Origin: a virus | Lineage: Duplodnaviria > Heunggongvirae > Uroviricota > Caudoviricetes | Virus record (IMG/VR): IMGVR_UViG_2537562220_000008 | Direction: 5' to 3' (one strand) | DNA length: 26,838 bases | Shown: piece after piece, positions 378 through 26,434 of the stretch | How the letters are laid out: each line of letters starts with the position of its first letter | How positions within the stretch are numbered: position 1 is the first letter of the stretch | Program-made: the position numbers and the translations under genes | Notes under the pieces: generated by a model | What the model was told of the DNA's origin: nothing | Seen by the model: only the letters and a program-made list of their open reading frames with translations | The model's database searches: none

Positions 378-432
378 TGGAGCACCTCAAAAACACCATC
401 ATACACTAAATCAGTAAGTTGGCAGCATCACC

Positions 433-1196
433 CAAAGCCCTGACGATCAACATCGACCATTACGGTGGCATTCGGTTTATTGCCTGTCAGATAATAATAA
501 TCAACAACCGTCATACCCTGGGTATATTTCCCCTGTGTTTCCACGCCAACCCAGCGCTCAACAGAGGTAAATAACTCCGGTTTCAACAGCCAGGCGATGG
601 TGCATGGGTCATGCAGTGGTGCGCCGACAAAGCCCCATTTTTCGTCTTTATGATATTCGAGGAAGAAATCCAGCAGTTCGGCAACAATGGTTGAAACAGG
701 GTTGCCAATCGCGCGGAAACGCTCAGTGTCTTCAACGTGGATTTGTGCTTTGTGAGTAACATCCAGACCGGCCATCACCACCGGGATCCCTGACTGGAAG
801 ACAATTTCTGCCGCTTCCGGGTCAACGTAAATATTAAATTCAGCCGCAGGCGTCCAATTACCCAGCCCCATTGCGCCGCCCATAATCACGATACGGGCAA
901 TTTTGCTATGCAGTTCCGGATGGCTATTGAGCAGCAAGGCAACGTTAGTTTGCGGTCCGGTAGACACAATCGTGACAGGTTCCGCACTTTCGCGCAGCGT
1001 TTTCGCCATCAGCTCTACCGCCGTACAGTTTTGCGGTGCGAACGTCGGTTCCGGTAATGCCGGGCCATCCAGACCGCTTTCGCCGTGCACATTGTCCGCG
1101 ATAATCAACTCACGCATTAACGGTTTTACCGCACCGCCTGCTACCGGAATATCGGTGCGATTAAGCAAGGTCAGCATACGCAGAACATTGCGTAAG
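433..1196 (-). pseudogene. rihA: ribonucleoside hydrolase RihA, internal fragment missing both ends
   Basis: ORF 428-1177 ([35 protein letters not shown]...) matches the nucleoside hydrolase RihA from about residue 50 onward as I recall it. The C-terminus is replaced by IS1 (stop lies inside the IS1 repeat); the N-terminal 50 or so codons are absent, with reading-frame identity lost near 1196 and an in-frame stop upstream. Confidence 0.65.
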
Positions 1197-1902: not shown

Positions 1903-1928
1903 AGAGATAAACGTTGGTTTGGGGGAAG
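1903..1928. promoter_or_regulatory. Candidate gix/hix-like inversion crossover site (left)
   Basis: Read inward to outward: TTCCCCCAAACC-AA-CGTTTATCTCTC, with the AAACC..GTTT core seen in Gin/Hin sites; sits exactly where homology between the two inverted arms ends. Confidence 0.5.
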
Positions 1929-2113
1929 GCTCTGCATTGCCTGTTGGTGTACCGGTTCCATGGCCCACCGCCACACCGCCAGCAGGCTGGTTAAAGTGCG
2001 ACGGGCGCGCCTTTACAAAAGAACAATATCCTGTTCTGGCCAGAGTCTACCCGACCCTCCGTCTTCCCGATTTACGCGGTGAGTTTATCCGTGGATGGGA
2101 CGACGGGCGCAAA
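1914..2113. repeat. Inverted repeat arm A (about 200 bp), partner of 3331-3530
   Basis: Sequence at 1914-2113 is the reverse complement of 3331-3530 (encodes ...GEGSALPVGVPVPWPTATPPAGWLKCDGRAFTKEQYPVLARVYPTLRLPDLRGEFIRGWDDGRK in both genes); similarity decays beyond about 2113. Confidence 0.85.
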
Positions 2114-2431
2114 GTTGATACAGGACGTAAGTTGCTGTCCGCACAAGGGGCAACGCTGTTAAGAACAGCAATGCTGGATTATTATAACCAGGACACTACG
2201 GGAACCTCGGGGATAGTCGGCATGGGATTCAACAATGAAGATTCCATTACAGACCTTCGTGAGGGCAGCTTTAAAATGCCGGACGGGACAACATTCAGCG
2301 ATCCTGTCGTGGCAATGTCAGACAATGGTATGCAGGCTACTATTCTGACCTCTATCAGAAGCGGGTATGCGAAGGGTATCACTGTCAGACCCCGTAGCAT
2401 TGCACTTAATTACATTGTGAGGGCAGTTTAA
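1919..2431 (+). CDS. Alternative tail-fibre C-terminal cassette (Sv'-like), promoterless in the present orientation
   Basis: Its N-terminal 65 aa are near-identical to an internal segment of the tail fibre (3052-4317); its C-terminus differs but ends with the same NYIVRA motif; directly followed by a tail-fibre assembly gene. Confidence 0.7.
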   Translation: MGEGSALPVGVPVPWPTATPPAGWLKCDGRAFTKEQYPVLARVYPTLRLPDLRGEFIRGWDDGRKVDTGRKLLSAQGATLLRTAMLDYYNQDTTGTSGIVGMGFNNEDSITDLREGSFKMPDGTTFSDPVVAMSDNGMQATILTSIRSGYAKGITVRPRSIALNYIVRAV

Positions 2432-3045
2432 TGAGTAACACTGCAGTTCTGGATGAAAACGGTATCGCCACTGTAGCGGGCGATATCACTGTATATCACT
2501 ATGACGAGGAAACCCGGGAATACACCTCATCCTCTGTGGAGTATCTCGCCCTTGGGGTGGGTACTCCGGCACATTCGTGCGCCGATGCACCGCCGGAGGC
2601 AATTTCGGGTTACGTGGTTTGCCGGACTGCCACGCTGAACGGGTGGGAGCATGTGCCTGATCACCGCGGCGAGACGGTATACAGCACGGAGAACGGTAAC
2701 CCTGTTCTGATTACCCAACCGGGTGATTACCCGGCGGACACCACCACAAAACAGCCAGCCACGCCATGGGATACCTGGAACGGTGAGGCGTGGGTAACCG
2801 ATACTGAACGGCAGCGAGCCGCAGAACTGGAGGTTGCCAGACAGCAACGCCAGCAACGGGTGAAACAGGCGATGGCGTCAGTCGATCTTATCAACCTCAA
2901 ACTGCGTGCTGGTCGCAGTCTGACACCAGAAGAAACGGCAAAACTGAACGCCGTGCTGGATTATATCGACGAGCTGAACGCACTGGATATCAGCACGGCA
3001 CCTGAAATCAGCTGGCCGGAAGCGCCACTGGCACTTGCCAGTTGA
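2431..3045 (+). CDS. Tail fibre assembly protein (Tfa/U-like chaperone)
   Basis: 204-aa protein whose C-terminus (...NLKLRAGRSLTPEETAKLNAVLDYIDELNALDISTAPEISWPE) has the conserved Tfa motif; start overlaps the Sv' stop (TAATG). Confidence 0.85.
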   Translation: MSNTAVLDENGIATVAGDITVYHYDEETREYTSSSVEYLALGVGTPAHSCADAPPEAISGYVVCRTATLNGWEHVPDHRGETVYSTENGNPVLITQPGDYPADTTTKQPATPWDTWNGEAWVTDTERQRAAELEVARQQRQQRVKQAMASVDLINLKLRAGRSLTPEETAKLNAVLDYIDELNALDISTAPEISWPEAPLALAS

Positions 3046-3051
3046 ACGGTA

Positions 3052-4317
3052 TCACGCCGCCCTCACGATATAGTTAAACGCGATATTGCGGGGGCGGGTT
3101 ATGTTAAAGAATGCTCCGTTTAATTCGGCTTTTGCGCGACTGTTTGTTCCACCCAGAATTACGTACCACAAATAATCGCTACGGTAATTCCCCGCAAACA
3201 CCTTATCGCCGCCATAGTCAATATTATTTCCGTTACTCATGTACGAGATATCAAGCGAAGAATCGTTATCGTCATGACCGCCGACCAGTGTACCTTTCTG
3301 CCATGAAAGCAACTTACGCCCCTCGTCAATCTTGCGCCCGTCGTCCCATCCACGGATAAACTCACCGCGTAAATCGGGAAGACGGAGGGTCGGGTAGACT
3401 CTGGCCAGAACAGGATATTGTTCTTTTGTAAAGGCGCGCCCGTCGCACTTTAACCAGCCTGCTGGCGGTGTGGCGGTGGGCCATGGAACCGGTACACCAA
3501 CAGGCAATGCAGAGCCTTCCCCCAAACCAAGGTAATTGAGGACATCTTTTATACTGCCCTTAGCGATAATAGCGCGACCAATAGCTGTAAGGGTTGCCAG
3601 CGCTGCGCGGTCTGCTCCGGTAAAATAAGGCAACCGATCTGCTGCAGTGGCAAGTCCTGCCAGAGCAGTGAGCGTGGCATCTGCCGGTTGTTTTCCGTTT
3701 GCCAGATCGTATGCAGCCTTGACCGCTTTCGGTGTGGCGGCCAGTATTTCAGACGTGCTGTTGATGGCACTGCTCAGTTGTACGGTGCCTTTTGCCGTCA
3801 GCGAGGCAGCAGGCACTCCCGTTATCTGACTCCACGGGTGAGTGTGGCTGACGGGCGCCTTGCCGGCTGCAAGGTCGTATGCAGCCTTGACCGCCTTCGG
3901 CGTGGCAGCCTCAGTTTCTGATTGACTGTCCGTGGCGCTGCTCAGTTGTACGGTGCCTTTTGCCGTCAGTGAAGCCGCAGGCACTCCCGTTATCTGACTC
4001 CACGGGTGAGTGTGGCTGGCAGGCGCCTTGCCGGCTGCCAGGTCGTATGCAGCCTTGACCGCTTTTGGTGTGGCGGCCAGCGTTTCAGAGGTGCTGTTGG
4101 TGGCACTGCTCAGTTGGGTGAACCCCTTAGCTGTCAGTGTCGCGTCCGGGTGGTTACGGGAACGTACGTGTTCAGCCAGTGACTGTGCGGCTTCCTCCGT
4201 TTTCTTCTTCAGCCATTTCGTCCTGTTTGCCAGTTGCCGGGGGCTCGATTTGATATCCCGTCTGCACCACCCAGAACCGGATCTGATGTCTCCAGTTGAT
4301 AGATATTTTCTTCCCAC
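3052..4317 (-). CDS. Tail fibre protein (P2 gpH / lambda Stf-like), currently expressed variant
   Basis: Contains tandem ...LTAKGTVQLSSATDSQSETEAATPKAVKAAYDLAAGK... repeats, a ...DATLTALAGLATAADRLPYFTG... segment and a collar-like C-terminal region ending NIAFNYIVRAA. Start is uncertain: GTG at 4317 has no Shine-Dalgarno sequence; an ATG at 4330 in another frame is a possible alternative. Confidence 0.85.
   Translation of the reverse strand: MGRKYLSTGDIRSGSGWCRRDIKSSPRQLANRTKWLKKKTEEAAQSLAEHVRSRNHPDATLTAKGFTQLSSATNSTSETLAATPKAVKAAYDLAAGKAPASHTHPWSQITGVPAASLTAKGTVQLSSATDSQSETEAATPKAVKAAYDLAAGKAPVSHTHPWSQITGVPAASLTAKGTVQLSSAINSTSEILAATPKAVKAAYDLANGKQPADATLTALAGLATAADRLPYFTGADRAALATLTAIGRAIIAKGSIKDVLNYLGLGEGSALPVGVPVPWPTATPPAGWLKCDGRAFTKEQYPVLARVYPTLRLPDLRGEFIRGWDDGRKIDEGRKLLSWQKGTLVGGHDDNDSSLDISYMSNGNNIDYGGDKVFAGNYRSDYLWYVILGGTNSRAKAELNGAFFNITRPRNIAFNYIVRAA
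3331..3530. repeat. Inverted repeat arm B (about 200 bp), partner of 1914-2113
   Basis: Reverse-complement identity with 1914-2113, as read directly from the sequence. Confidence 0.85.
3517..3542. promoter_or_regulatory. Candidate gix/hix-like inversion crossover site (right)
   Basis: TTCCCCCAAACC-AA-GGTAATTGAGGA; inner half-site identical to the left site, outer half-site different, as expected for the two ends of an invertible segment. Confidence 0.5.
3640..4150. repeat. 168-bp tandem repeats inside the tail fibre gene (about 3 copies, 56-aa units)
   Basis: The motif tacggtgccttttgccgtcag recurs at 3781 and 3949 (168 bp apart); the protein shows three successive ...TAKG(F/T)(T/V)QLSSA...AATPKAVKAAYDLA... 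units. Confidence 0.8.
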
Positions 4318-6358: not shown

Positions 6359-6412
6359 GGGGGCAGTATTGCCCCCGTGCGGGAACGCTGATATTAAAGG
6401 CGTTTAAAAAGC

Positions 6413-8360: not shown

Positions 8361-9244
8361 CACACACTCCTCGTCAGTATTCTGGCGGCCATTGCACTTA
8401 ATCCCGGAGACATGCGGTTGAATGCTGTTCCGACGGCGTTAAGCTGCCCGGAAACGGTATCCAGAGCACCTGCAATATTTCTTTTGTCCACACCACTCAG
8501 CGCAGACTGTGCCTGCTGTACATACGTGGCTGCTTCGCTGGCTGTTCTGGCCAGACTGATGGCATCGGGCATGGATTCAGAGAGTGCGTTAAACGCCGGA
8601 ACACTTTTCCCCAGAGCCCCGGAGATATTACCCAGTCCGCTCATCAGCCCCGGCACACGGGTCAGTGCGACAACGGGGTTATCCTTCATTTTCTGTGTCA
8701 CCCGAACGGCGCTGATAGTGGTCTGGAGTACAGACTGCGCCTGTTTCGCATAGTTGACGCCGTTGCGGATGAACTGCGCCACCCCGGAAGGTGAAGGAAT
8801 GGCACCGGAGACCGCCCCGACACCCGGGAGCTTCGTGCGTATTGCCGGTGGTTGCAGAGGATTTTTCGGGTCACCGGTGTATTCCCGGAGAGACACGGTG
8901 GCACTGACAGCCAGCACGTTGCCGATACTGTCAGTCTGCTCGCTGGTTGCAGTCACATCGGTAATCACGAACCAGCCGCGATAGTCACCGTTGCCGAAGA
9001 CCAGCGCCAGTGCCTGATGGGCTTTCATGGCTGTTCGCAGTCTCGCCAGCTCCACATCGGGTACACAATAATGCTGATGGAAAACCAGAGTTATCTGGAT
9101 TTCGTCCAGCCTGTCGCCGACGAACTGCAGGCCAGGCTTACCCCCGATGCGGGCATGCTCCGCATAATCGACGCCGAACGTGGCCTCGAAGCCGTCCCAG
9201 TAGGTAATCAGCTCAAACTCAATATCACCCAGTACGGCAAACAT
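8360..9244 (-). CDS. Tail protein, P2 gpU-like / Mu N (DNA circularisation)-like
   Basis: 294-aa ORF immediately downstream of the tape measure (ATGA overlap); N-terminal region (...GKPGLQFVGDRLDEIQITLVF...) resembles gpU-type tail proteins as I recall them. Confidence 0.5.
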   Translation of the reverse strand: MFAVLGDIEFELITYWDGFEATFGVDYAEHARIGGKPGLQFVGDRLDEIQITLVFHQHYCVPDVELARLRTAMKAHQALALVFGNGDYRGWFVITDVTATSEQTDSIGNVLAVSATVSLREYTGDPKNPLQPPAIRTKLPGVGAVSGAIPSPSGVAQFIRNGVNYAKQAQSVLQTTISAVRVTQKMKDNPVVALTRVPGLMSGLGNISGALGKSVPAFNALSESMPDAISLARTASEAATYVQQAQSALSGVDKRNIAGALDTVSGQLNAVGTAFNRMSPGLSAMAARILTRSV

Positions 9245-12200
9245 CAGCGGTACTCCTTACGTTGTTTCTGAGCAAGCAGACGCTCCAGCATTTTTTCCAG
9301 CTCATGCAGACTCATATTCAGGGCACCAGTCAGTCCTGCAGGCGCTGTGGTTTCCCTGCCATTGAGGAAAAACTGAGGATTAAAGCTGACCTGGATACCA
9401 CCAGACGTTCCACCGCCGGTTGCAGCTGCACCACGGCCTGAATATCCGGCAGCCAGGATTTCAGGCGAGGGGATACGGGGAACATCCGGTGTCATCTCAT
9501 TTGCCAGACGTTGCCCTGGTAAAATCGATGCCCGGGTGGAGAGCGGAATAGCGGGCATGGAAGACAAACTATTGATTACGGCTCCGATCGCATTTTTAGC
9601 AGACGACATAAACCCATTGATATCGGGCAACGGCATACTGAAGCGAACACCTGAAGTGTTATCCCGTATTTCTGGCCCCTGAATGCTCACGGGCATTTTG
9701 GGGAGCAGTTCACTGGCCATTCGCTGCCCGGCCAGAGCTGCAAGCGGAGTGGTCCGCTGCAGGCCAATGGCGGCCCCCTGCGCGATATTGTCACCAAAGC
9801 CCATAAACACGCGGCTCGGCGAATGAATGCCCAGCTTTTCGCTGAACCAGCCACTGATGCTGTCGCCCATTCCGGTTACACTGGATTTGAGCGACTCCCA
9901 TTTGTTTTTGATACCGTTAATCAGACCATCGACAAGATGGCCACCGAAGTCGGTAAACTTTGCCGGCAGATCAACACCAAGATATTTCAGCGCAGCTGCA
10001 AAGGCTTTATAGAGCAGACCTGCCGGCGACCAGTTAATCAGCAGCTTACCAGTTCCCGCGATACCGCCGTTAAAGGCTTCCTGAATGTCAGCCCAGCACT
10101 GTTTAAACCAGCTACTGATGCTGTCACCCATTCCGGTTACACTGGATTTGAGCGACCCCCATTTGTTTTTGATACCGTTAATCAGACCGTCGATAAGATG
10201 GCCACCGAAGTCGGTGAACTTTGCCGGCAGAGTAACGCCGAAATATTTCAGCGCAGCCGCAAAGGCTTTATAGAGCAGGCCTGCCGGCGACCAGTTAATC
10301 AGCAACTTACCAGTTCCCACAATGCCGCCGTTAAAGGCTTCCTGAATGTCAGCCCAGCGCTGTTTAAACCAGCTACTGATGCTGTCACCCATTCCGGTTA
10401 CACTGGATTTGAGCGACCCCCATTTGCTTTTGATACCGTTAATCAGACCGTCGATAAGATGGCCACCGAAGTCGGTGAACTTTGCCGGCAGAGCAACGCC
10501 GAAATATTTCAGCGCAGCCGCAAAGGCTTTATAGAGCAGGCCTGCCGGCGACCAGTTAATCAGCAACTTACCAGTTCCCACAATGCCGCCGTTAAAGGCT
10601 TCCTGAATGTCAGCCCAGCGCTGTTTAAACCAACCACTGACAGCCCCCCAGTTGCGGTAGATAAGGTAAGCTGCTGCCGCGACAGCGGTGATAACGAGAC
10701 CGATGGGATTCATCATCAGCGCTCGCCCAATCCAGAGAACGGCACGTGCAGCGCTCATAAAACCGCGAACGAGGCTGCCCGCCAGAACTTTGCTGAGTTT
10801 CAGTCCTCCGCTGGTCAGTCGGCTGAATCCAGTGACAAGCCAGCGTAATTTGCCACCTTCTCCGAGTGCGGTAGTCAGTCGATGCCAGTTGGTCCGGAGT
10901 AAAACAGCATTTTTCCAGACACTTACAAAGGGGGAAATAAGGAGATTCAGCCCCAGTTTGAGACCAACAGTCGCTATCTTAATCGCAAGGAGCGCACTGA
11001 TGAGCTTAAAAGCCCCACTGACAAATTGCGGGTGAGTCGCTACCCAGTGTTTTGCCCCCTGAATGAGTGGAAGCAGTTCCTGAGTCAAAGAAATAAAAGA
11101 TGGAGCTAATTGATCGCCCAGCGTAATTGCCAGATCGCGACTGCTGACCATAAGTGTTTTAGTGGCTTCAAGGGGAGATTTCAGTCGCTGATCGTAAGCA
11201 CTGGCAAGCAAATCGTTATCCGCAGCCCTGAGAGCACCGGCACGGATCTCTCGATATCTGTCCATGTTGGCCAGCATCGGGCGGATAAATGCCATGACCT
11301 GCATATCCGCGAACATATCACCCAGACCAAAGTTTTTCGCCAGAGCCTGAAGTGCCTCATCTCTTGCCGTATCATTCTTTATTTTCATGGCGGATTTGAA
11401 GCCGGCCAGCGCTTCGGGGCTTTTGGCATTGAGGTAACGTTCTATAACACTCAACATCCCTTCAATCGGAGAGATCCCCGCAGCCTTATAACTCGCAATA
11501 GATCCCTGCAAATCAATACCCAGATCAGCAAACTGTTTCTGAGTATCGCGGGCAAAAATTTTGGTAAGAAAGTTTTTAAAATTATTGGCTGCTTCGTCGG
11601 TGGAACCTGCACCGATTTTTGCTATCTGGAGACTGGCCCCGATTTCAGCAACAGCCTCTTTTCCACTGGCAATACCCGCCATCATTGGGGCCAGGGACTG
11701 CATCCACTTGACCTGATCCGGGATTTCAAATGACCCCTGGTCACCGGCATAAGCCATAATATTCTGAACGGCACCAAAATCTCTGGCCGCACCTTTCAGG
11801 GAGTTTTGCCAGACTGCGGCCACTTTTGCCCAGTCCTGAGCAGACGTGCGTGTTGCCGTTGCCGCGCGGGCAATATCCGGCATCAGAAAACCGATATCTG
11901 ACACATTATCAATATTGTCGCTGATGAGTGAACCCACCGCCTCCTGCAGCTCATCCTGATACTGATTGTATTTAAGCGCCCAGCCTTTTATCTGTCCGGC
12001 AAGTGCATCCCGCGTTTTATTGTCATATTTTGCGGTGATCGACATATCAATCATTTTGTCCTGAAAAGACATGGACTGCTGAACGGCAGGGGAAACCGTA
12101 TGATAAACAGTCTGTGCCATGCCATACGCTTCAATCCCCTGACCATACAGCGCCATGCGGTTAGCTTTCAGCGCATCACTGGTAGCGGATGCCGCTGACA

Positions 12201-12456
12201 GACGGCGCTGCTGGCGCTCAATTTGCTCCATGGTGCGGCTTACCCGCAGCAGCTCGCTGTTGAGATGCTGCATCCGGGAAGAACCCAGTTGACCATAACG
12301 TTCTGTTGCACGGGTTAAAGCGTTCTGACGTTCCTGCAGGCGGCGTGAGGTATCGCTCAGGGAATCAAGCGCACGGCGGGGACCGCTCATTGCAGAACGG
12401 AATGTGCTGCCAATCATCCCGCCGATAACAACGCCGACTGAAAACTGTCCCGACAT
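9244..12456 (-). CDS. Tail tape measure protein
   Basis: 1070-aa ORF, the largest in the cluster, helix-rich, downstream of the tail chaperone gene and containing internal tandem repeats; ATG at 12456 preceded by GGAGG. Confidence 0.85.
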   Translation of the reverse strand: MSGQFSVGVVIGGMIGSTFRSAMSGPRRALDSLSDTSRRLQERQNALTRATERYGQLGSSRMQHLNSELLRVSRTMEQIERQQRRLSAASATSDALKANRMALYGQGIEAYGMAQTVYHTVSPAVQQSMSFQDKMIDMSITAKYDNKTRDALAGQIKGWALKYNQYQDELQEAVGSLISDNIDNVSDIGFLMPDIARAATATRTSAQDWAKVAAVWQNSLKGAARDFGAVQNIMAYAGDQGSFEIPDQVKWMQSLAPMMAGIASGKEAVAEIGASLQIAKIGAGSTDEAANNFKNFLTKIFARDTQKQFADLGIDLQGSIASYKAAGISPIEGMLSVIERYLNAKSPEALAGFKSAMKIKNDTARDEALQALAKNFGLGDMFADMQVMAFIRPMLANMDRYREIRAGALRAADNDLLASAYDQRLKSPLEATKTLMVSSRDLAITLGDQLAPSFISLTQELLPLIQGAKHWVATHPQFVSGAFKLISALLAIKIATVGLKLGLNLLISPFVSVWKNAVLLRTNWHRLTTALGEGGKLRWLVTGFSRLTSGGLKLSKVLAGSLVRGFMSAARAVLWIGRALMMNPIGLVITAVAAAAYLIYRNWGAVSGWFKQRWADIQEAFNGGIVGTGKLLINWSPAGLLYKAFAAALKYFGVALPAKFTDFGGHLIDGLINGIKSKWGSLKSSVTGMGDSISSWFKQRWADIQEAFNGGIVGTGKLLINWSPAGLLYKAFAAALKYFGVTLPAKFTDFGGHLIDGLINGIKNKWGSLKSSVTGMGDSISSWFKQCWADIQEAFNGGIAGTGKLLINWSPAGLLYKAFAAALKYLGVDLPAKFTDFGGHLVDGLINGIKNKWESLKSSVTGMGDSISGWFSEKLGIHSPSRVFMGFGDNIAQGAAIGLQRTTPLAALAGQRMASELLPKMPVSIQGPEIRDNTSGVRFSMPLPDINGFMSSAKNAIGAVINSLSSMPAIPLSTRASILPGQRLANEMTPDVPRIPSPEILAAGYSGRGAAATGGGTSGGIQVSFNPQFFLNGRETTAPAGLTGALNMSLHELEKMLERLLAQKQRKEYR
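9853..10635. repeat. Three tandem 261-bp (87-aa) repeats inside the tape measure gene
   Basis: Protein shows three near-identical units SWFKQRWADIQEAFNGGIVGTGKLLINWSPAGLLYKAFAAALKYFGV.LPAKFTDFGGHLIDGLINGIK.KWGSLKSSVTGMGDSIS; the three near-identical antisense ORFs at 9827, 10085 and 10346 are a by-product. Confidence 0.85.
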
Positions 12457-12505
12457 AGTGGTTAACCTCCGGGGAAGGTGAAAAGACGTGAGGGGATAAC
12501 GCAGA

Positions 12506-12526
12506 ACAGCCGCTACTGGCGGCTGT
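12506..12526 (-). terminator. Stem-loop between chaperone and tape measure genes (possible attenuator or mRNA structure)
   Basis: ACAGCCGC-TACTG-GCGGCTGT: 8-bp perfect stem with 5-nt loop, between the chaperone stop (12532) and the tape measure start (12456); only a weak U-tract follows. Confidence 0.3.
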
Positions 12527-12531
12527 CTGTA

Positions 12532-12640
12532 CTATGATTTGTCGCCGTACTCGCTTTTGATTTGCTCTTCAGCCTGCTCCAGCCACATCTCCAGATCGTC
12601 AGTATCGAGGGCATCAATCTCCCCCGGCTGAAACCGGAAC
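12532..12640 (-). CDS. Tail chaperone C-terminal extension (E'-like) reached by an apparent +1 frameshift
   Basis: The +1 frame continues past the chaperone stop into a well-formed acidic segment ...QPGEIDALDTDDLEMWLEQAEEQIKSEYGDKS; upstream of the overlap that frame is implausible, so an independent gene is unlikely. Confidence 0.5.
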
Positions 12641-12949
12641 CATCTCGCCAGCAGCCCCTGCGCCTGCGTCAGCGCCCTGGTTGCTCTCACCCATCCCCGT
12701 GATGAGCTGAAATCGTTTCTGTAACTGCAGGTAATCAGCCAGATCCATATTGTCGAGATCCTCCGGGAGAAGACCAGTACTGCGGGCAATCAGCGGTTCG
12801 TCCCAGTCTGCCGGGTTTTTGCTGATTTTGCGCACCTGCTTCAGGTCTTTTACCGTCAGGCGTTTCAGTTCAACCAGCTCAATTCTGGTGCCTGCAGCAG
12901 TGGTGAAGGGATAAGACAATTTAAAAGTATCGGATGGGGTCTGTGACAT
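12614..12949 (-). CDS. Tail assembly chaperone (P2 gpE-like)
   Basis: 111-aa ORF directly upstream of the tape measure with an overlapping downstream frame; ATG at 12949 preceded by AGGAG. Confidence 0.7.
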   Translation of the reverse strand: MSQTPSDTFKLSYPFTTAAGTRIELVELKRLTVKDLKQVRKISKNPADWDEPLIARSTGLLPEDLDNMDLADYLQLQKRFQLITGMGESNQGADAGAGAAGEMVPVSAGGD

Positions 12950-13024
12950 GATTGTGCTCCTGTGTAAGTTCAGGGCAGTATGTCGGGAGAAGCGCGTGAC
13001 GGATATTAAAGGAGATTAAGAAGA

Positions 13025-13040
13025 AGGGGCCGGAGCCCCT
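13025..13040 (-). terminator. Candidate intrinsic terminator after the small ORF
   Basis: AGGGGC-CGGA-GCCCCT hairpin (GC-rich stem) immediately after the stop at 13047, followed on the minus strand by UCUUCUUAAUCUCC. Confidence 0.45.
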
Positions 13041-13046
13041 GTGATG

Positions 13047-13328
13047 TCAGCAAGTGCGAAACCCCTTGCAGTTACGCAGGAAAGCGATGAGAAGCGTCTT
13101 TCCCTCAGATTTGCCGATGCCGGAGAACCAGTGGTCGGGAGGCTCCCATGCTTCAATCAAATCCGCCAGTTTGCGGGCCTTTGAACGTGTGCAGTCAATC
13201 GGGTCATTGGTTTTACGGGTATTAAAAAGGGTTTCCACCCCCGGAATATCAAGGAGGGTAAACCACGTACCATTTGACATGCCCAGTGCCGCACATCGTC
13301 CTCCTTTATCCGTCAGTTCAACACTCAC
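13047..13328 (-). CDS. Hypothetical protein (no family recognised), between tail tube and chaperone genes
   Basis: 93-codon ORF with a GTG start 2 nt after the tube stop and followed by a hairpin; an antisense ORF (13054-13347) also exists, so coding status is uncertain. Confidence 0.35.
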   Translation of the reverse strand: MSVELTDKGGRCAALGMSNGTWFTLLDIPGVETLFNTRKTNDPIDCTRSKARKLADLIEAWEPPDHWFSGIGKSEGKTLLIAFLRNCKGFRTC

Positions 13329-13330
13329 CG

Positions 13331-13852
13331 TCAGCCCCCGATATTGATACGGTAGTCAGTCAGTTGATCAACACCGCCGACCCGGAAGATGTTGGCCAGA
13401 TAGTCCAGTTGCAGCAGCTCTTCCCCATCCAGTACCTGTCTGATATACGTGCAGGTGAAGCTACTGGAGAACTCGGCGTTCTCGTGCTGTTTGAACGTCC
13501 CCAGCGGGTTCTTCTTGAACATAATCGTCAGGAAGGTGACCAGCGGGATTTCGTCAATCAGCCCCTGCGAGCTGTAGCGCTGGACGCTGGAACGACACTG
13601 CAGTGCCAGCGACCTGTACGGGTTCGCGGCAGACAGCATCGCATCGCGGTAAAAGCTGTTCCATTTGATTTCGCCTTCCAGTTTGTCAAAACCAGCCGGG
13701 AGTTCCACCTTACCCACCATCCCCAGCGCCTTGTGTTCCTGCATAATCATGGAGACATCGGGGAGTTTAACTTCCTCAGCCCGTCCCAGCAGGTTAGTAC
13801 CATCCAGATAGATGTTGGCATTCGTGATGCGGTTTATCTCAATCTTTGACAT
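13331..13852 (-). CDS. Tail tube protein (P2 FII / Mu M-like)
   Basis: 173-aa ORF immediately downstream of the sheath gene (ATGA overlap), the canonical sheath-tube order. Confidence 0.75.
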   Translation of the reverse strand: MSKIEINRITNANIYLDGTNLLGRAEEVKLPDVSMIMQEHKALGMVGKVELPAGFDKLEGEIKWNSFYRDAMLSAANPYRSLALQCRSSVQRYSSQGLIDEIPLVTFLTIMFKKNPLGTFKQHENAEFSSSFTCTYIRQVLDGEELLQLDYLANIFRVGGVDQLTDYRINIGG

Positions 13853-15279
13853 CAGTTGCCCCCTTTCAGGGTTAACAGGTATTCCGAGGTGATCTCAGTC
13901 TCAAACGTCAGTCGCTCCAGCGGCGGTGGTGGCGTATATTTGTAGCTCAGCAACAGGTGCCCGGCGGCCAGCTCCGTCTCCGGATTGCGGGCCGGATCAA
14001 ACCAGCAACGGAAGCCCAGTACCGCACCATCACCAGTCATTTTGCGACCGTAGGCGTTGACCGACTCCGTCAGTGCATCAATCAGCGCCTGAGTAATCGG
14101 CATGTCGATGTACTGCTGGCTGAAATAACGAATGGACTCGTTGATCACATCACCGGTGCGGCGAACGTTCTCAAAGTTACGCATATGGGTGACCGTTGGC
14201 CATGCTGCCGTCCGGTTACCCCACAGACGAAGGCCGCTGCCGTAACTGCTGAATACCGTGGTGATCCCCTGTTCGTTAAGCAGGTTCACCTCACTCTGCG
14301 GGTCATCAATCATCGCGGACAGCTGGCGCTCCACGCCGGTGATCCCCAGAATCTCCTGATTGGAGGATGACCACCAGTAGCCCTTGTCCAGATCGACTCT
14401 GGCACGCAGACCTGCTGCACGCTGGCTGAGCGGCTCCAGACGCTCTGTGTTTGTCACCGGGTCATATACCTTCACATGCGGATAGCACAGACGGACGCGG
14501 TCGGAGCTGGTATTGAAGTTGATGGTGCCTTCCGGGCCACGACCTGCCAGAGCCTGTGCAAAGGTGGTACCGACAGGCGCATCAATGTAGGTTACCGCGC
14601 CCAGCTTCTCTGCCATGGCGATAAGCTCAACTGCGACACTCTTCTGGGTGCAGAACACCGGCGCAATCAGAATTTTGGCGAAATAGCCGTACAGGTTGAA
14701 GCTGTCGTTAAGCAGCTTCATGCCGGTTCGGTTTCCGGCGCTGTTCACCCCGCCGATGATGTCCGCCGCAGTCACCTTCGACGGGTCCGCGTACTCATAG
14801 CTCACCTTCACGCTGCCACCGGCCTCAATAGCCTTGCCCAGGTTCGTGAGCACACCCGCCTGCGCATCAACACGGTAGTCCGTGTTCGCCGTGTGGGTGG
14901 TGCTGCCTTCACTGTTTTTCACCACCACATTAGCGACAACCGGATGCGCCAGTCTGGCCTGCCCTGTCGATTTGTCAAAGGTAACCACCTCATCCTCGAT
15001 CGCCGTTTTATGTTTCGCCGGGTCGAGGACGTTAATGACCAGAACGGTGCCTGCACCATGGTCATAAATCGCATCCAGCGCCTGCGGAATGGTAAAGCCG
15101 GTGAACTGGCTGCCAAATGCCGCTGCGTCTTTCTCAGACAGGCACTGTACCAGCGTATTGACATCCCCCATCGGGGCGGTACCAATCAGGCCAATAACGG
15201 CAGATTTCACCGTTTTAACCGGGCGGGCACCGTTTTCCACCTCAATGGTTTCGGGACCATGCAGATAGTTAGCTGCCAT
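13852..15279 (-). CDS. Contractile tail sheath protein (P2 FI / Mu L-like)
   Basis: 475-aa ORF; ATG at 15279 preceded by GGAGG; size and position typical of sheath proteins. Confidence 0.8.
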   Translation of the reverse strand: MAANYLHGPETIEVENGARPVKTVKSAVIGLIGTAPMGDVNTLVQCLSEKDAAAFGSQFTGFTIPQALDAIYDHGAGTVLVINVLDPAKHKTAIEDEVVTFDKSTGQARLAHPVVANVVVKNSEGSTTHTANTDYRVDAQAGVLTNLGKAIEAGGSVKVSYEYADPSKVTAADIIGGVNSAGNRTGMKLLNDSFNLYGYFAKILIAPVFCTQKSVAVELIAMAEKLGAVTYIDAPVGTTFAQALAGRGPEGTINFNTSSDRVRLCYPHVKVYDPVTNTERLEPLSQRAAGLRARVDLDKGYWWSSSNQEILGITGVERQLSAMIDDPQSEVNLLNEQGITTVFSSYGSGLRLWGNRTAAWPTVTHMRNFENVRRTGDVINESIRYFSQQYIDMPITQALIDALTESVNAYGRKMTGDGAVLGFRCWFDPARNPETELAAGHLLLSYKYTPPPPLERLTFETEITSEYLLTLKGGN

Positions 15280-26361: not shown

Positions 26362-26393
26362 GCATCACAAATACAGGGCGCGAAGGATTTTAA
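26355..26393 (-). promoter_or_regulatory. Bipartite motif TTAAAATC-N23-CTGTCTCC upstream of the holin-like gene (candidate late promoter, copy 2)
   Basis: Minus strand reads TTAAAATCcttcgcgcCCTGtATTTgtgatgCTGTCTCC, ending 19 nt before the ATG; same boxes and spacing as the copy upstream of gene I. Confidence 0.5.
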
Positions 26394-26434
26394 AGCGCGT
26401 TAAGAGAGCCGGGGATACGGGATGTGCAGGATAA

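Follow-up and report, generated by a model that had tools for sequence, protein, structure and literature searches.

A DUF7739/phrog_1239 gene in a probable variable cargo slot behind the tail tube gene of a Mu-like prophage

The locus between the tail tube and chaperone genes

The window, that is the complete stretch of 26,838 nucleotides (nt) of the IMG/VR virus record IMGVR_UViG_2537562220_000008, contains the late genes of a prophage that is Mu-like and has a contractile tail of the P2 type. It shares approximately 99.9% identity with Escherichia phage PhiKM and 88% with Klebsiella phage KP12. We analyzed an open reading frame (ORF) of 93 codons located between the genes for the tail tube and the tail assembly chaperone E, which is labelled as hypothetical protein in the records of both phages. 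The segment comprising the tube gene, the ORF and the chaperone gene was found in 641 of 5426 complete E. coli genomes (ca. 12%), many of which belong to O25b:H4/ST131. In this part of the window, the minus strand carries all of the late genes. In the direction of transcription the locus contains the following features:

13852-15279, minus strand: sheath gene (Phage_sheath_1)
13331-13852, minus strand: tail tube gene of the P2 FII family (Phage_tube, E 3e-53); its stop codon at 13331-13333 is the upstream edge of the slot
13047-13328, minus strand: accessory gene of 93 codons with GTG start and TGA stop (13047-13049); phrog_1239, divergent DUF7739
13025-13040, minus strand: GC-rich hairpin AGGGGC-TCCG-GCCCCT, based on a terminator scan, folding and conservation in relatives
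13014-13024, minus strand: interrupted T-rich tract TCTTCTTAAT directly after the hairpin
13002-13019, minus strand: dyad motif TTAATCTCCTTTAATATC (TTAA-N6-TTAA), one of three exact copies in the window and conserved in relatives
12977-12982, minus strand: -10-like hexamer CATACT, 23 nt downstream of the second TTAA half-site, a geometry suggestive of a promoter
12614-12949, minus strand: tail assembly chaperone E gene of the P2 gpE family (Phage_TAC_7) with its start codon at 12949; downstream edge of the slot and putative first gene of the next unit
9244-12456, minus strand: tape measure gene, followed by homologues of gpU, gpD and gpW

The GTG start codon of the ORF, preceded by GGGGG, follows the stop codon of the tube gene after 2 nt, and a gap of 6 nt separates its TGA from the hairpin. 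An initial annotation, made from the sequence without database searches, had interpreted the ORF as a moron or accessory cargo gene with its own terminator, or alternatively as a spurious frame in front of a polarity terminator. The position of the ORF, its GTG start, its length of 93 codons and the hairpin with the T-rich tract were as described there.

The reading frame is a gene of an uncharacterised family

The ORF 13047-13328 is a genuine protein-coding gene under purifying selection. Its product matched phrog_1239 over the full length (E 4.7e-48, residues 1-93 versus profile positions 1-96 of 96). Comparison with relatives occupying the same slot gave ratios of nonsynonymous to synonymous substitutions (dN/dS) of 0.03-0.17, at dS values ranging from 0.25 to more than 1. 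Of the six frames, only that of the ORF had a positive codon-usage score. A tblastn search against phage genomes disclosed full-length homologues with 40-54% identity in 18 further phages, and an exhaustive profile search of 1.84 billion representatives yielded 76 clusters, nearly all of which consist of stand-alone, single-domain proteins of 86-100 amino acids (aa). On the opposite strand, an antisense ORF of 97 aa (13054-13347, plus strand) matched no Pfam or PHROG family and had a negative coding score.

In Pfam, the product reached 24.7 bits (E 3.5e-5) with DUF7739 (PF24881), just under the gathering threshold of 27 bits; a precomputed PF24881.2 match is recorded for the database protein P0001, which is 98% identical to it. 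The DUF7739 model recognized only 12 of 52 diverse relatives at E <= 10. Over 91 residues the product shares 42% identity with gp22 of Shigella phage Sf6, whose subgroup forms the core of DUF7739. The family is already catalogued (DUF7739, PHROG 1239), though uncharacterised, and the ORF is a divergent member of it. Of the profile and structure searches proposed in the initial annotation, the former supplied a family; Foldseek returned nothing significant from the PDB. Conserved motifs of the family are N-x-T-W-F, T-N-D-P, W-x-P-P and F-x-x-C-x-G-F. Our literature searches on DUF7739, phrog_1239, fHe-Yen8-01, hkaH and Sf6 gp22 revealed no work on this family. For longer proteins carrying the domain (P0056, P0077, P0100 and others), the gene calls appear to be chimeric or to result from read-through, and no functional lead came from them; two repeat proteins (P0094, P0101) were spurious matches.

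Several NCBI records (P0104, P0106, P0107, P0109) contain a shorter version of 77 aa starting at Met17. The start at GTG resulting in 93 aa is the better choice, because the first 16 residues (M-[ST]-V-E...) are conserved throughout the DUF7739/phrog_1239 family and because GTG or ATG occurs at the identical position among relatives.

Codon usage and the GC content at third codon positions (GC3), which the initial annotation had suggested comparing with neighboring genes, gave a divided result. At a GC3 of 0.54 the ORF differs from the tube (0.71) and sheath (0.68) genes, but not from the chaperone (0.57) and tape measure (0.54) genes. Its codon score was 0.17, compared to 0.32-0.44 for most phage genes.

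The tube-chaperone junction in related phages

The interval between the tube and chaperone genes was compared in 80 loci from IMG/VR that encode tube proteins with 91-100% identity to that of the window. Five states were observed:

Intact ORF alone: 54/80 loci, tube-chaperone gap of ~385 nt
Intact ORF and an extra 97-aa gene upstream: 9/80 loci, gap of ~668 nt
Defective copy of the ORF (frameshift, nonsense mutation or deletion): 8/80 loci, gap varies
Empty slot: 8/80 loci, gap of 90-131 nt
A different 66-aa gene (phrog_9518): 1/80 loci, gap of 354 nt

Hence, the ORF was intact in 63 loci and absent or defective in 17, counting the locus with the other gene. One of the defective copies (L070) has an internal deletion that is in-frame. 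The extra 97-aa gene belongs to the Phage_gp49_66 family (N4 Gp49/Sf6 gene 66); it lies upstream of the DUF7739 gene and overlaps its start. Altogether it was detected in ten loci, nine with an intact and one with a defective ORF (L036 at ~3520-3810, L041, L044, L048, L053, L057, L058, L063, L065 and L073). The unrelated phrog_9518 gene (L085, ~3535-3735) is followed by its own hairpin and T-run.

The ORF is dispensable and mobile. It is present in some of the 80 loci and absent from close relatives, as is expected of morons. The tube-chaperone junction is probably a variable cargo slot with at least three alternative cargo genes, situated at a probable boundary between transcription units. 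Comparing the spacing between tube and chaperone genes, another suggestion of the initial annotation, has thus shown that it varies with the content of the slot.

Homologues in other contexts

Homologues of the ORF were encountered in quite different surroundings, among others in lambdoid/P22-like, Mu-like and SSU5-like phages. Two podoviruses, Sf6 and CUS-3, as well as HK75 carry them in the early-left (PL) operon, between genes annotated as Erf, SSB and Abc2 (recombination or anti-RecBCD functions) and xis/int, adjoined by genes annotated as Lar-like and Ea22-like. In an Enterobacter phage the homologue is found in the ea region, flanked by genes annotated as EaA and excisionase, and in Edwardsiella phage EPP-1 it is flanked by rdgC and the integrase gene. 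A Mu-like element has its copy in the early region, with a DUF3164 gene on one side and GemA/Mor on the other, and on a contig of an uncultured phage a thymidylate synthase gene is the neighbor. Homologues also occur in SSU5-like phages of 92-99 kb, one of which, Yersinia phage fHe-Yen8-01, has its homologue gp123 (L004, 4001-4309) annotated as 'particle associated protein'. This gene is surrounded by other 'particle associated' genes, including one for a DNA methyltransferase, and a large 'ADP-ribosyltransferase toxin' gene is located ~1.5 kb downstream. We found no paper supporting the 'particle associated protein' label. The contigs carrying other distant family members were too short to show the context.

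No neighboring gene recurred across the contexts compared, and for this reason the product of the ORF probably acts alone. In other phages the family may be expressed from early accessory regions. The product is not a component of the tail: it matched no tail family in Pfam or PHROGs, and neither its presence nor its synteny is conserved across the phages sharing the tail, as the gene is absent or defective in 17/80 loci and has homologues in non-contractile phages.

The hairpin downstream of the ORF

The hairpin at 13025-13040 has a predicted folding energy of -12.8 kcal/mol (z = -2.3 versus shuffled sequences). Since four terminator-like sites were found in 3.6 kb, compared to 3.0 +/- 1.7 in shuffles, the pattern alone is not above chance. 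We take the hairpin as real because the relatives have a hairpin and T-tract at the same site, in six or more versions of the stem/loop sequence. The stem variants comprise GGGGC/GCCCC (with UCCG, UUCG or UGCG loops), GGGGGCC/GGCUCCC, GGGAGC/GCUCCC and GGGGCC/GGCCCC; in the locus with the alternative cargo the stem is GGAGGG/CCCUCC. All variants except those of two loci (L080, L087) fold to a hairpin here, with energies of -11.8 to -24 kcal/mol. Each variant was folded individually, those of different length being out of register in a MAFFT alignment. A search of Rfam with a permissive E-value revealed no RNA family within 12400-13900.

In the loci with an empty slot, the hairpin and T-tract follow the stop codon of the tube gene at a distance of 10-45 nt and precede the conserved block also present in the window; L080 and L087, which lack the hairpin, are the exceptions. 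As the empty loci keep these elements, we concluded that the hairpin belongs to the phage backbone and was not brought in by the ORF. The initial annotation can therefore not be followed in assigning the ORF its own terminator. Its other proposal, a terminator after a highly expressed gene, came closer: judging by sequence and conservation, the hairpin looks like an intrinsic terminator or attenuator of the backbone that closes the sheath-tube(-cargo) late unit. The associated suggestion of a spurious ORF does not hold.

A dyad motif and a putative late promoter

The block downstream of the hairpin consists of CTTAATCYCCTTTAATATCCG, a spacer of ~17 nt, ACATACTGCYCTGAA, AGGAG and the ATG of the chaperone gene. 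It is conserved in essentially all relatives, including the hairpin-less loci L080 and L087. At the -10-like CATACT, the sequence ATACTGC is conserved in relatives. Within this block resides the core TTAA-N4-CTTTAAWATC with two TTAA half-sites one helical turn apart. Exactly three copies exist in the window compared to 0.01 expected, an estimate that is optimistic as the pattern was refined on the same three sites that it matches:

26386-26403, minus (coding) strand: intergenic, before the holin gene
13002-13019, minus (coding) strand: intergenic, before the chaperone E gene
6390-6407, minus (coding) strand: intergenic, before gpW

Two of the three copies are followed by ATACTGCCC after ~17-18 nt. 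At the chaperone site CATACT lies 23 nt after the second half-site, which would place the centre of the dyad near -43, presumably the position where the Mor/C activators of Mu bind. The dyad copies probably mark activator-dependent late promoters of the Mu-like phage, and the copy at 13002-13019 is a possible binding site for a late-gene activator. The site upstream of gpW fits poorly, its -10-like hexamer being only 8 nt away from the ATG.

Within the tube gene (13331-13852) a consensus scan of the minus strand disclosed no sigma-70-like site, though a weak or cryptic promoter could escape such a scan. Moreover, there is no room for a promoter of the ORF downstream of the tube gene, because its GTG follows the stop codon after 2 nt. 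The ORF thus appears to have no promoter of its own.

Predicted structure and possible function

The AlphaFold2 model of the product (predicted local distance difference test, pLDDT, 89.5; predicted template modelling score, pTM, 0.80) displays a compact beta-beta-alpha-beta-alpha-alpha-beta domain. Neither a hydrophobic or membrane segment nor a signal peptide was detected in the product, which is predicted to be a soluble single-domain alpha/beta protein. Structural resemblances were as follows:

3w1o, DNA mimic protein DMP12: 7.2 (79 residues, 2.5 Å)
3r5a, N-terminal domain of DapD: 5.6
5j4a_D, CdiI immunity protein: 5.3
1ryl, YfbM: 4.9

Foldseek comparison with BFVD retrieved only uncharacterised viral proteins, and when 52 members of the family were scanned against Pfam with permissive settings, no second family recurred. 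Conservation mostly concerns aromatic or core residues, together with N19, D42 and C87, among which we recognized no metal-binding or catalytic signature. The window protein and its subgroup have an isoelectric point (pI) of 8.4 and a net charge of +2, compared with family medians of 4.86 and -5.

The small, soluble single domain, the wealth of host-takeover and anti-nuclease genes in the accessory regions and the likeness to small inhibitor- or immunity-type proteins led us to a tentative guess, namely a small cytoplasmic protein acting alone to bind or inhibit a factor of the host or of anti-phage defence. Going further, it is conceivable, if rather doubtful, that DUF7739 represents an undescribed counter-defence or host-takeover family, in which binders of ~93 aa with a DMP12/YfbM-like fold neutralise a nucleoid-associated or anti-phage protein of the host. 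Such genes would have been shuffled among the early operons of lambdoid, Mu-like and SSU5-like phages and moved to the most highly expressed late transcript in the ST131-type prophage lineage. If this were true, the late copy could have a protective role in the late steps of infection, or its product could be loaded into the virion; the 'particle associated' label in fHe-Yen8-01 hints at the latter.

Several results speak against these functional proposals. No PDB structure was matched by Foldseek at E <= 0.001, scans of the protein with NCBIfam and PADLOC gave zero matches, and PDB sequence searches with profiles of 12 and 52 sequences found nothing credible. The resemblance to DMP12 (3w1o), a protein that binds the nucleoid protein HU, exists at the level of the fold only (6% identity, Foldseek E 1.2). 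DNA mimicry is unlikely for the window copy because of its net charge of +2 (pI 8.4). The Tai/Ati tail-assembly-interference systems (PMC11364771) were also considered as a late counter-defence analogy and were discarded, since no homology was found, phi80 being absent from the tblastn matches.

Proposed organisation and alternative explanations

We propose, with a probability of about 80%, that the ORF is a real accessory gene of the DUF7739/phrog_1239 family residing in a variable cargo slot, which is located at the 3′-end of the sheath-tube late unit in front of a backbone terminator. The order would be sheath, tube and cargo, then the terminator, the late promoter, and the chaperone, tape measure, U, X and D genes. 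Transcription of the ORF would occur late in infection, together with sheath and tube; its translation would be coupled to that of the tube gene, and the product would be made in large amounts. The hairpin would lower the read-through into the downstream genes; as the T-tract is interrupted, termination should be no more than partial. Added DNA would disturb nothing at the 3′-end of the unit, just before the terminator, which would explain why cargo gathers at this site.

Some points weaken this interpretation. Composition does not prove a foreign origin of the ORF, as its GC3 matches that of the chaperone and tape measure genes. The relatives with an empty slot are prophage-derived contigs and not necessarily viable phages. 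Furthermore, the T-tract after the hairpin is interrupted (TTCTTCTT), and the roles of terminator and promoter rest on sequence and conservation only.

By definition, canonical morons are additional transcription units of phage genomes that are independent and expressed from the prophage (PMC3594210). The ORF might be such a gene if it were expressed from the repressed prophage through a cryptic promoter in the 3′-end of the tube gene and benefited the lysogen, for example by superinfection exclusion or a trait of fitness or virulence. The variable presence between conserved tail genes, the terminator behind the ORF, its codon score and GC3 below those of sheath and tube and the frequency of the prophage in ST131-type E. 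coli are all compatible with a moron, and gp15 of HK97 provides a precedent inside a tail operon (PMC3594210). However, the ORF follows the tube stop codon after 2 nt, the coding strand of the tube gene contained no recognizable sigma-70-like promoter, and the terminator is part of the backbone, so that the moron layout put forward in the initial annotation is not that of an independent unit. In addition, the product is devoid of the membrane segment or signal peptide of typical exclusion proteins and has homologues elsewhere within early operons of the lytic cycle. We therefore regard a canonical moron as unlikely. A lineage-specific tail assembly or structural protein, for instance a factor associated with the tube or chaperoning it, is improbable. 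Such a role would suit a gene that sits between tube and chaperone genes with putative translational coupling to the former, is intact in 63/80 loci and in the isolated phages PhiKM and KP12, and has a 'particle associated' homologue in fHe-Yen8-01. It conflicts with the absence of the gene from relatives whose tubes are 91-97% identical, with the defects in eight more loci, with the lack of a match to any Pfam or PHROGs tail family and with the homologues (40-54% identity) in early operons of the non-contractile phages Sf6, CUS-3 and HK75 and in the Mu-like early region.

The likeness to the CdiI immunity protein raises the question of an immunity or antitoxin protein paired with a toxin, and an 'ADP-ribosyltransferase toxin' gene indeed lies ~1.5 kb downstream of the homologue in fHe-Yen8-01. 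Yet no toxin gene is adjacent in the window, Sf6, HK75, CUS-3, EPP-1 or the Mu-like early region, nor is any neighbor consistent across the contexts, which makes this pairing very improbable. The chance that the ORF is spurious and the 380 bp merely a non-coding spacer serving the terminator after the tube gene is practically negligible. It is true that the frame is short, starts with GTG, is annotated as hypothetical only and was called with 77 aa in some records, and that the hairpin is a feature of the backbone. A spacer is nonetheless refuted by the conservation of the ORF (phrog_1239 at E 4.7e-48, dN/dS of 0.03-0.17 with dS up to ~1 or more, homologues in unrelated phages); the fold was predicted with confidence, and the relatives with an empty slot manage with a spacer of 90-131 nt.

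The accessory gene in front of a backbone terminator remains the reading that we prefer. What the initial annotation had supposed in general, an accessory cargo between conserved tail genes, was borne out by a gene that is present, absent, defective or replaced among phages with 91-100% identical tubes and has homologues in unrelated contexts. Neither of the two outcomes that it had considered contrary to this idea was found, as the ORF proved to be conserved without being any known structural component.

Further observations on the window

Within the tape measure gene, a unit of 261 bp is repeated three times in tandem (9845-10640, 95% matches), corresponding to three protein repeats of 87 aa. 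At these repeats the tape measure gene is split in the PhiKM record, which contains a sequencing gap there. A second-frame ORF (12532-12789, minus strand) overlaps the chaperone gene, has a typical gpE' C-terminus and is called 'GpE family phage tail protein' in one RefSeq genome. It is presumably the product of the programmed -1 frameshift (E+E') of P2-type tails.

On the plus strand, a fragment of a tail fibre gene with a Collar domain (1919-2431) and a tail fibre assembly gene (2431-3045) are situated next to a tail fibre gene on the minus strand (3052-4317). This layout (1919-4317) is reminiscent of the invertible segments that determine host range, for instance Mu G or P1 C. A nucleoside hydrolase gene (428-1177, minus strand; IU_nuc_hydro) matched its profile from position 49 onward only. 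It appears to lack the N-terminus on the side facing the phage genes and may be a host gene interrupted by the prophage, whose end would in that case fall at ~1180-1275.

Significance and comparison with known systems

Phage operons are well known to harbor small, shuffled accessory genes in permissive slots; the ORF is an ordinary feature of this kind and by itself overturns nothing that is known on phage genome organisation. For annotation, the gain is that the ORF is real, that the GTG start yielding 93 aa is correct and that the gene is not part of the tail. Its interest resides in the prevalence in E. coli combined with an uncharacterised function. As an accessory protein that would be abundantly expressed late and is encoded in ~12% of the complete E. 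coli genomes, the product is a reasonable candidate for anti-defence or host-interaction screens.

Sf6 gp22 and its relatives are homologous to the ORF product, belong to the same PHROG, have a similar length (~93-99 aa) and the same conserved motifs, and are likewise uncharacterised. Their genes lie in the early-left accessory region between recombination genes and xis/int, in contrast to the window copy at the end of the late tail unit. Most members of the Sf6 gp22 family are acidic, whereas the window copy is near-neutral or basic and remains below the threshold in Pfam.

Gene 15 of HK97 resembles the ORF in being small and non-structural, in lying between conserved tail genes and in its absence from close relatives (PMC3594210). 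It is a superinfection exclusion moron within the tail operon, forms an independent transcription unit with its own promoter and terminator, is expressed from the prophage and encodes an inner-membrane protein (gp15). The ORF differs by having no detected promoter, by a terminator that belongs to the backbone and by a product predicted to be soluble; the two proteins share no sequence relationship.

The lambdoid 'ea' genes and the semi-essential early region of Mu-like phages house family members beside genes annotated as anti-RecBCD Abc2, Lar-like, Ea22-like and GemA/Mor. Like the ORF, these genes are small, dispensable and horizontally shuffled. Unlike them, the window copy seems to have moved to a late operon, where late timing and high abundance of the product are to be expected.

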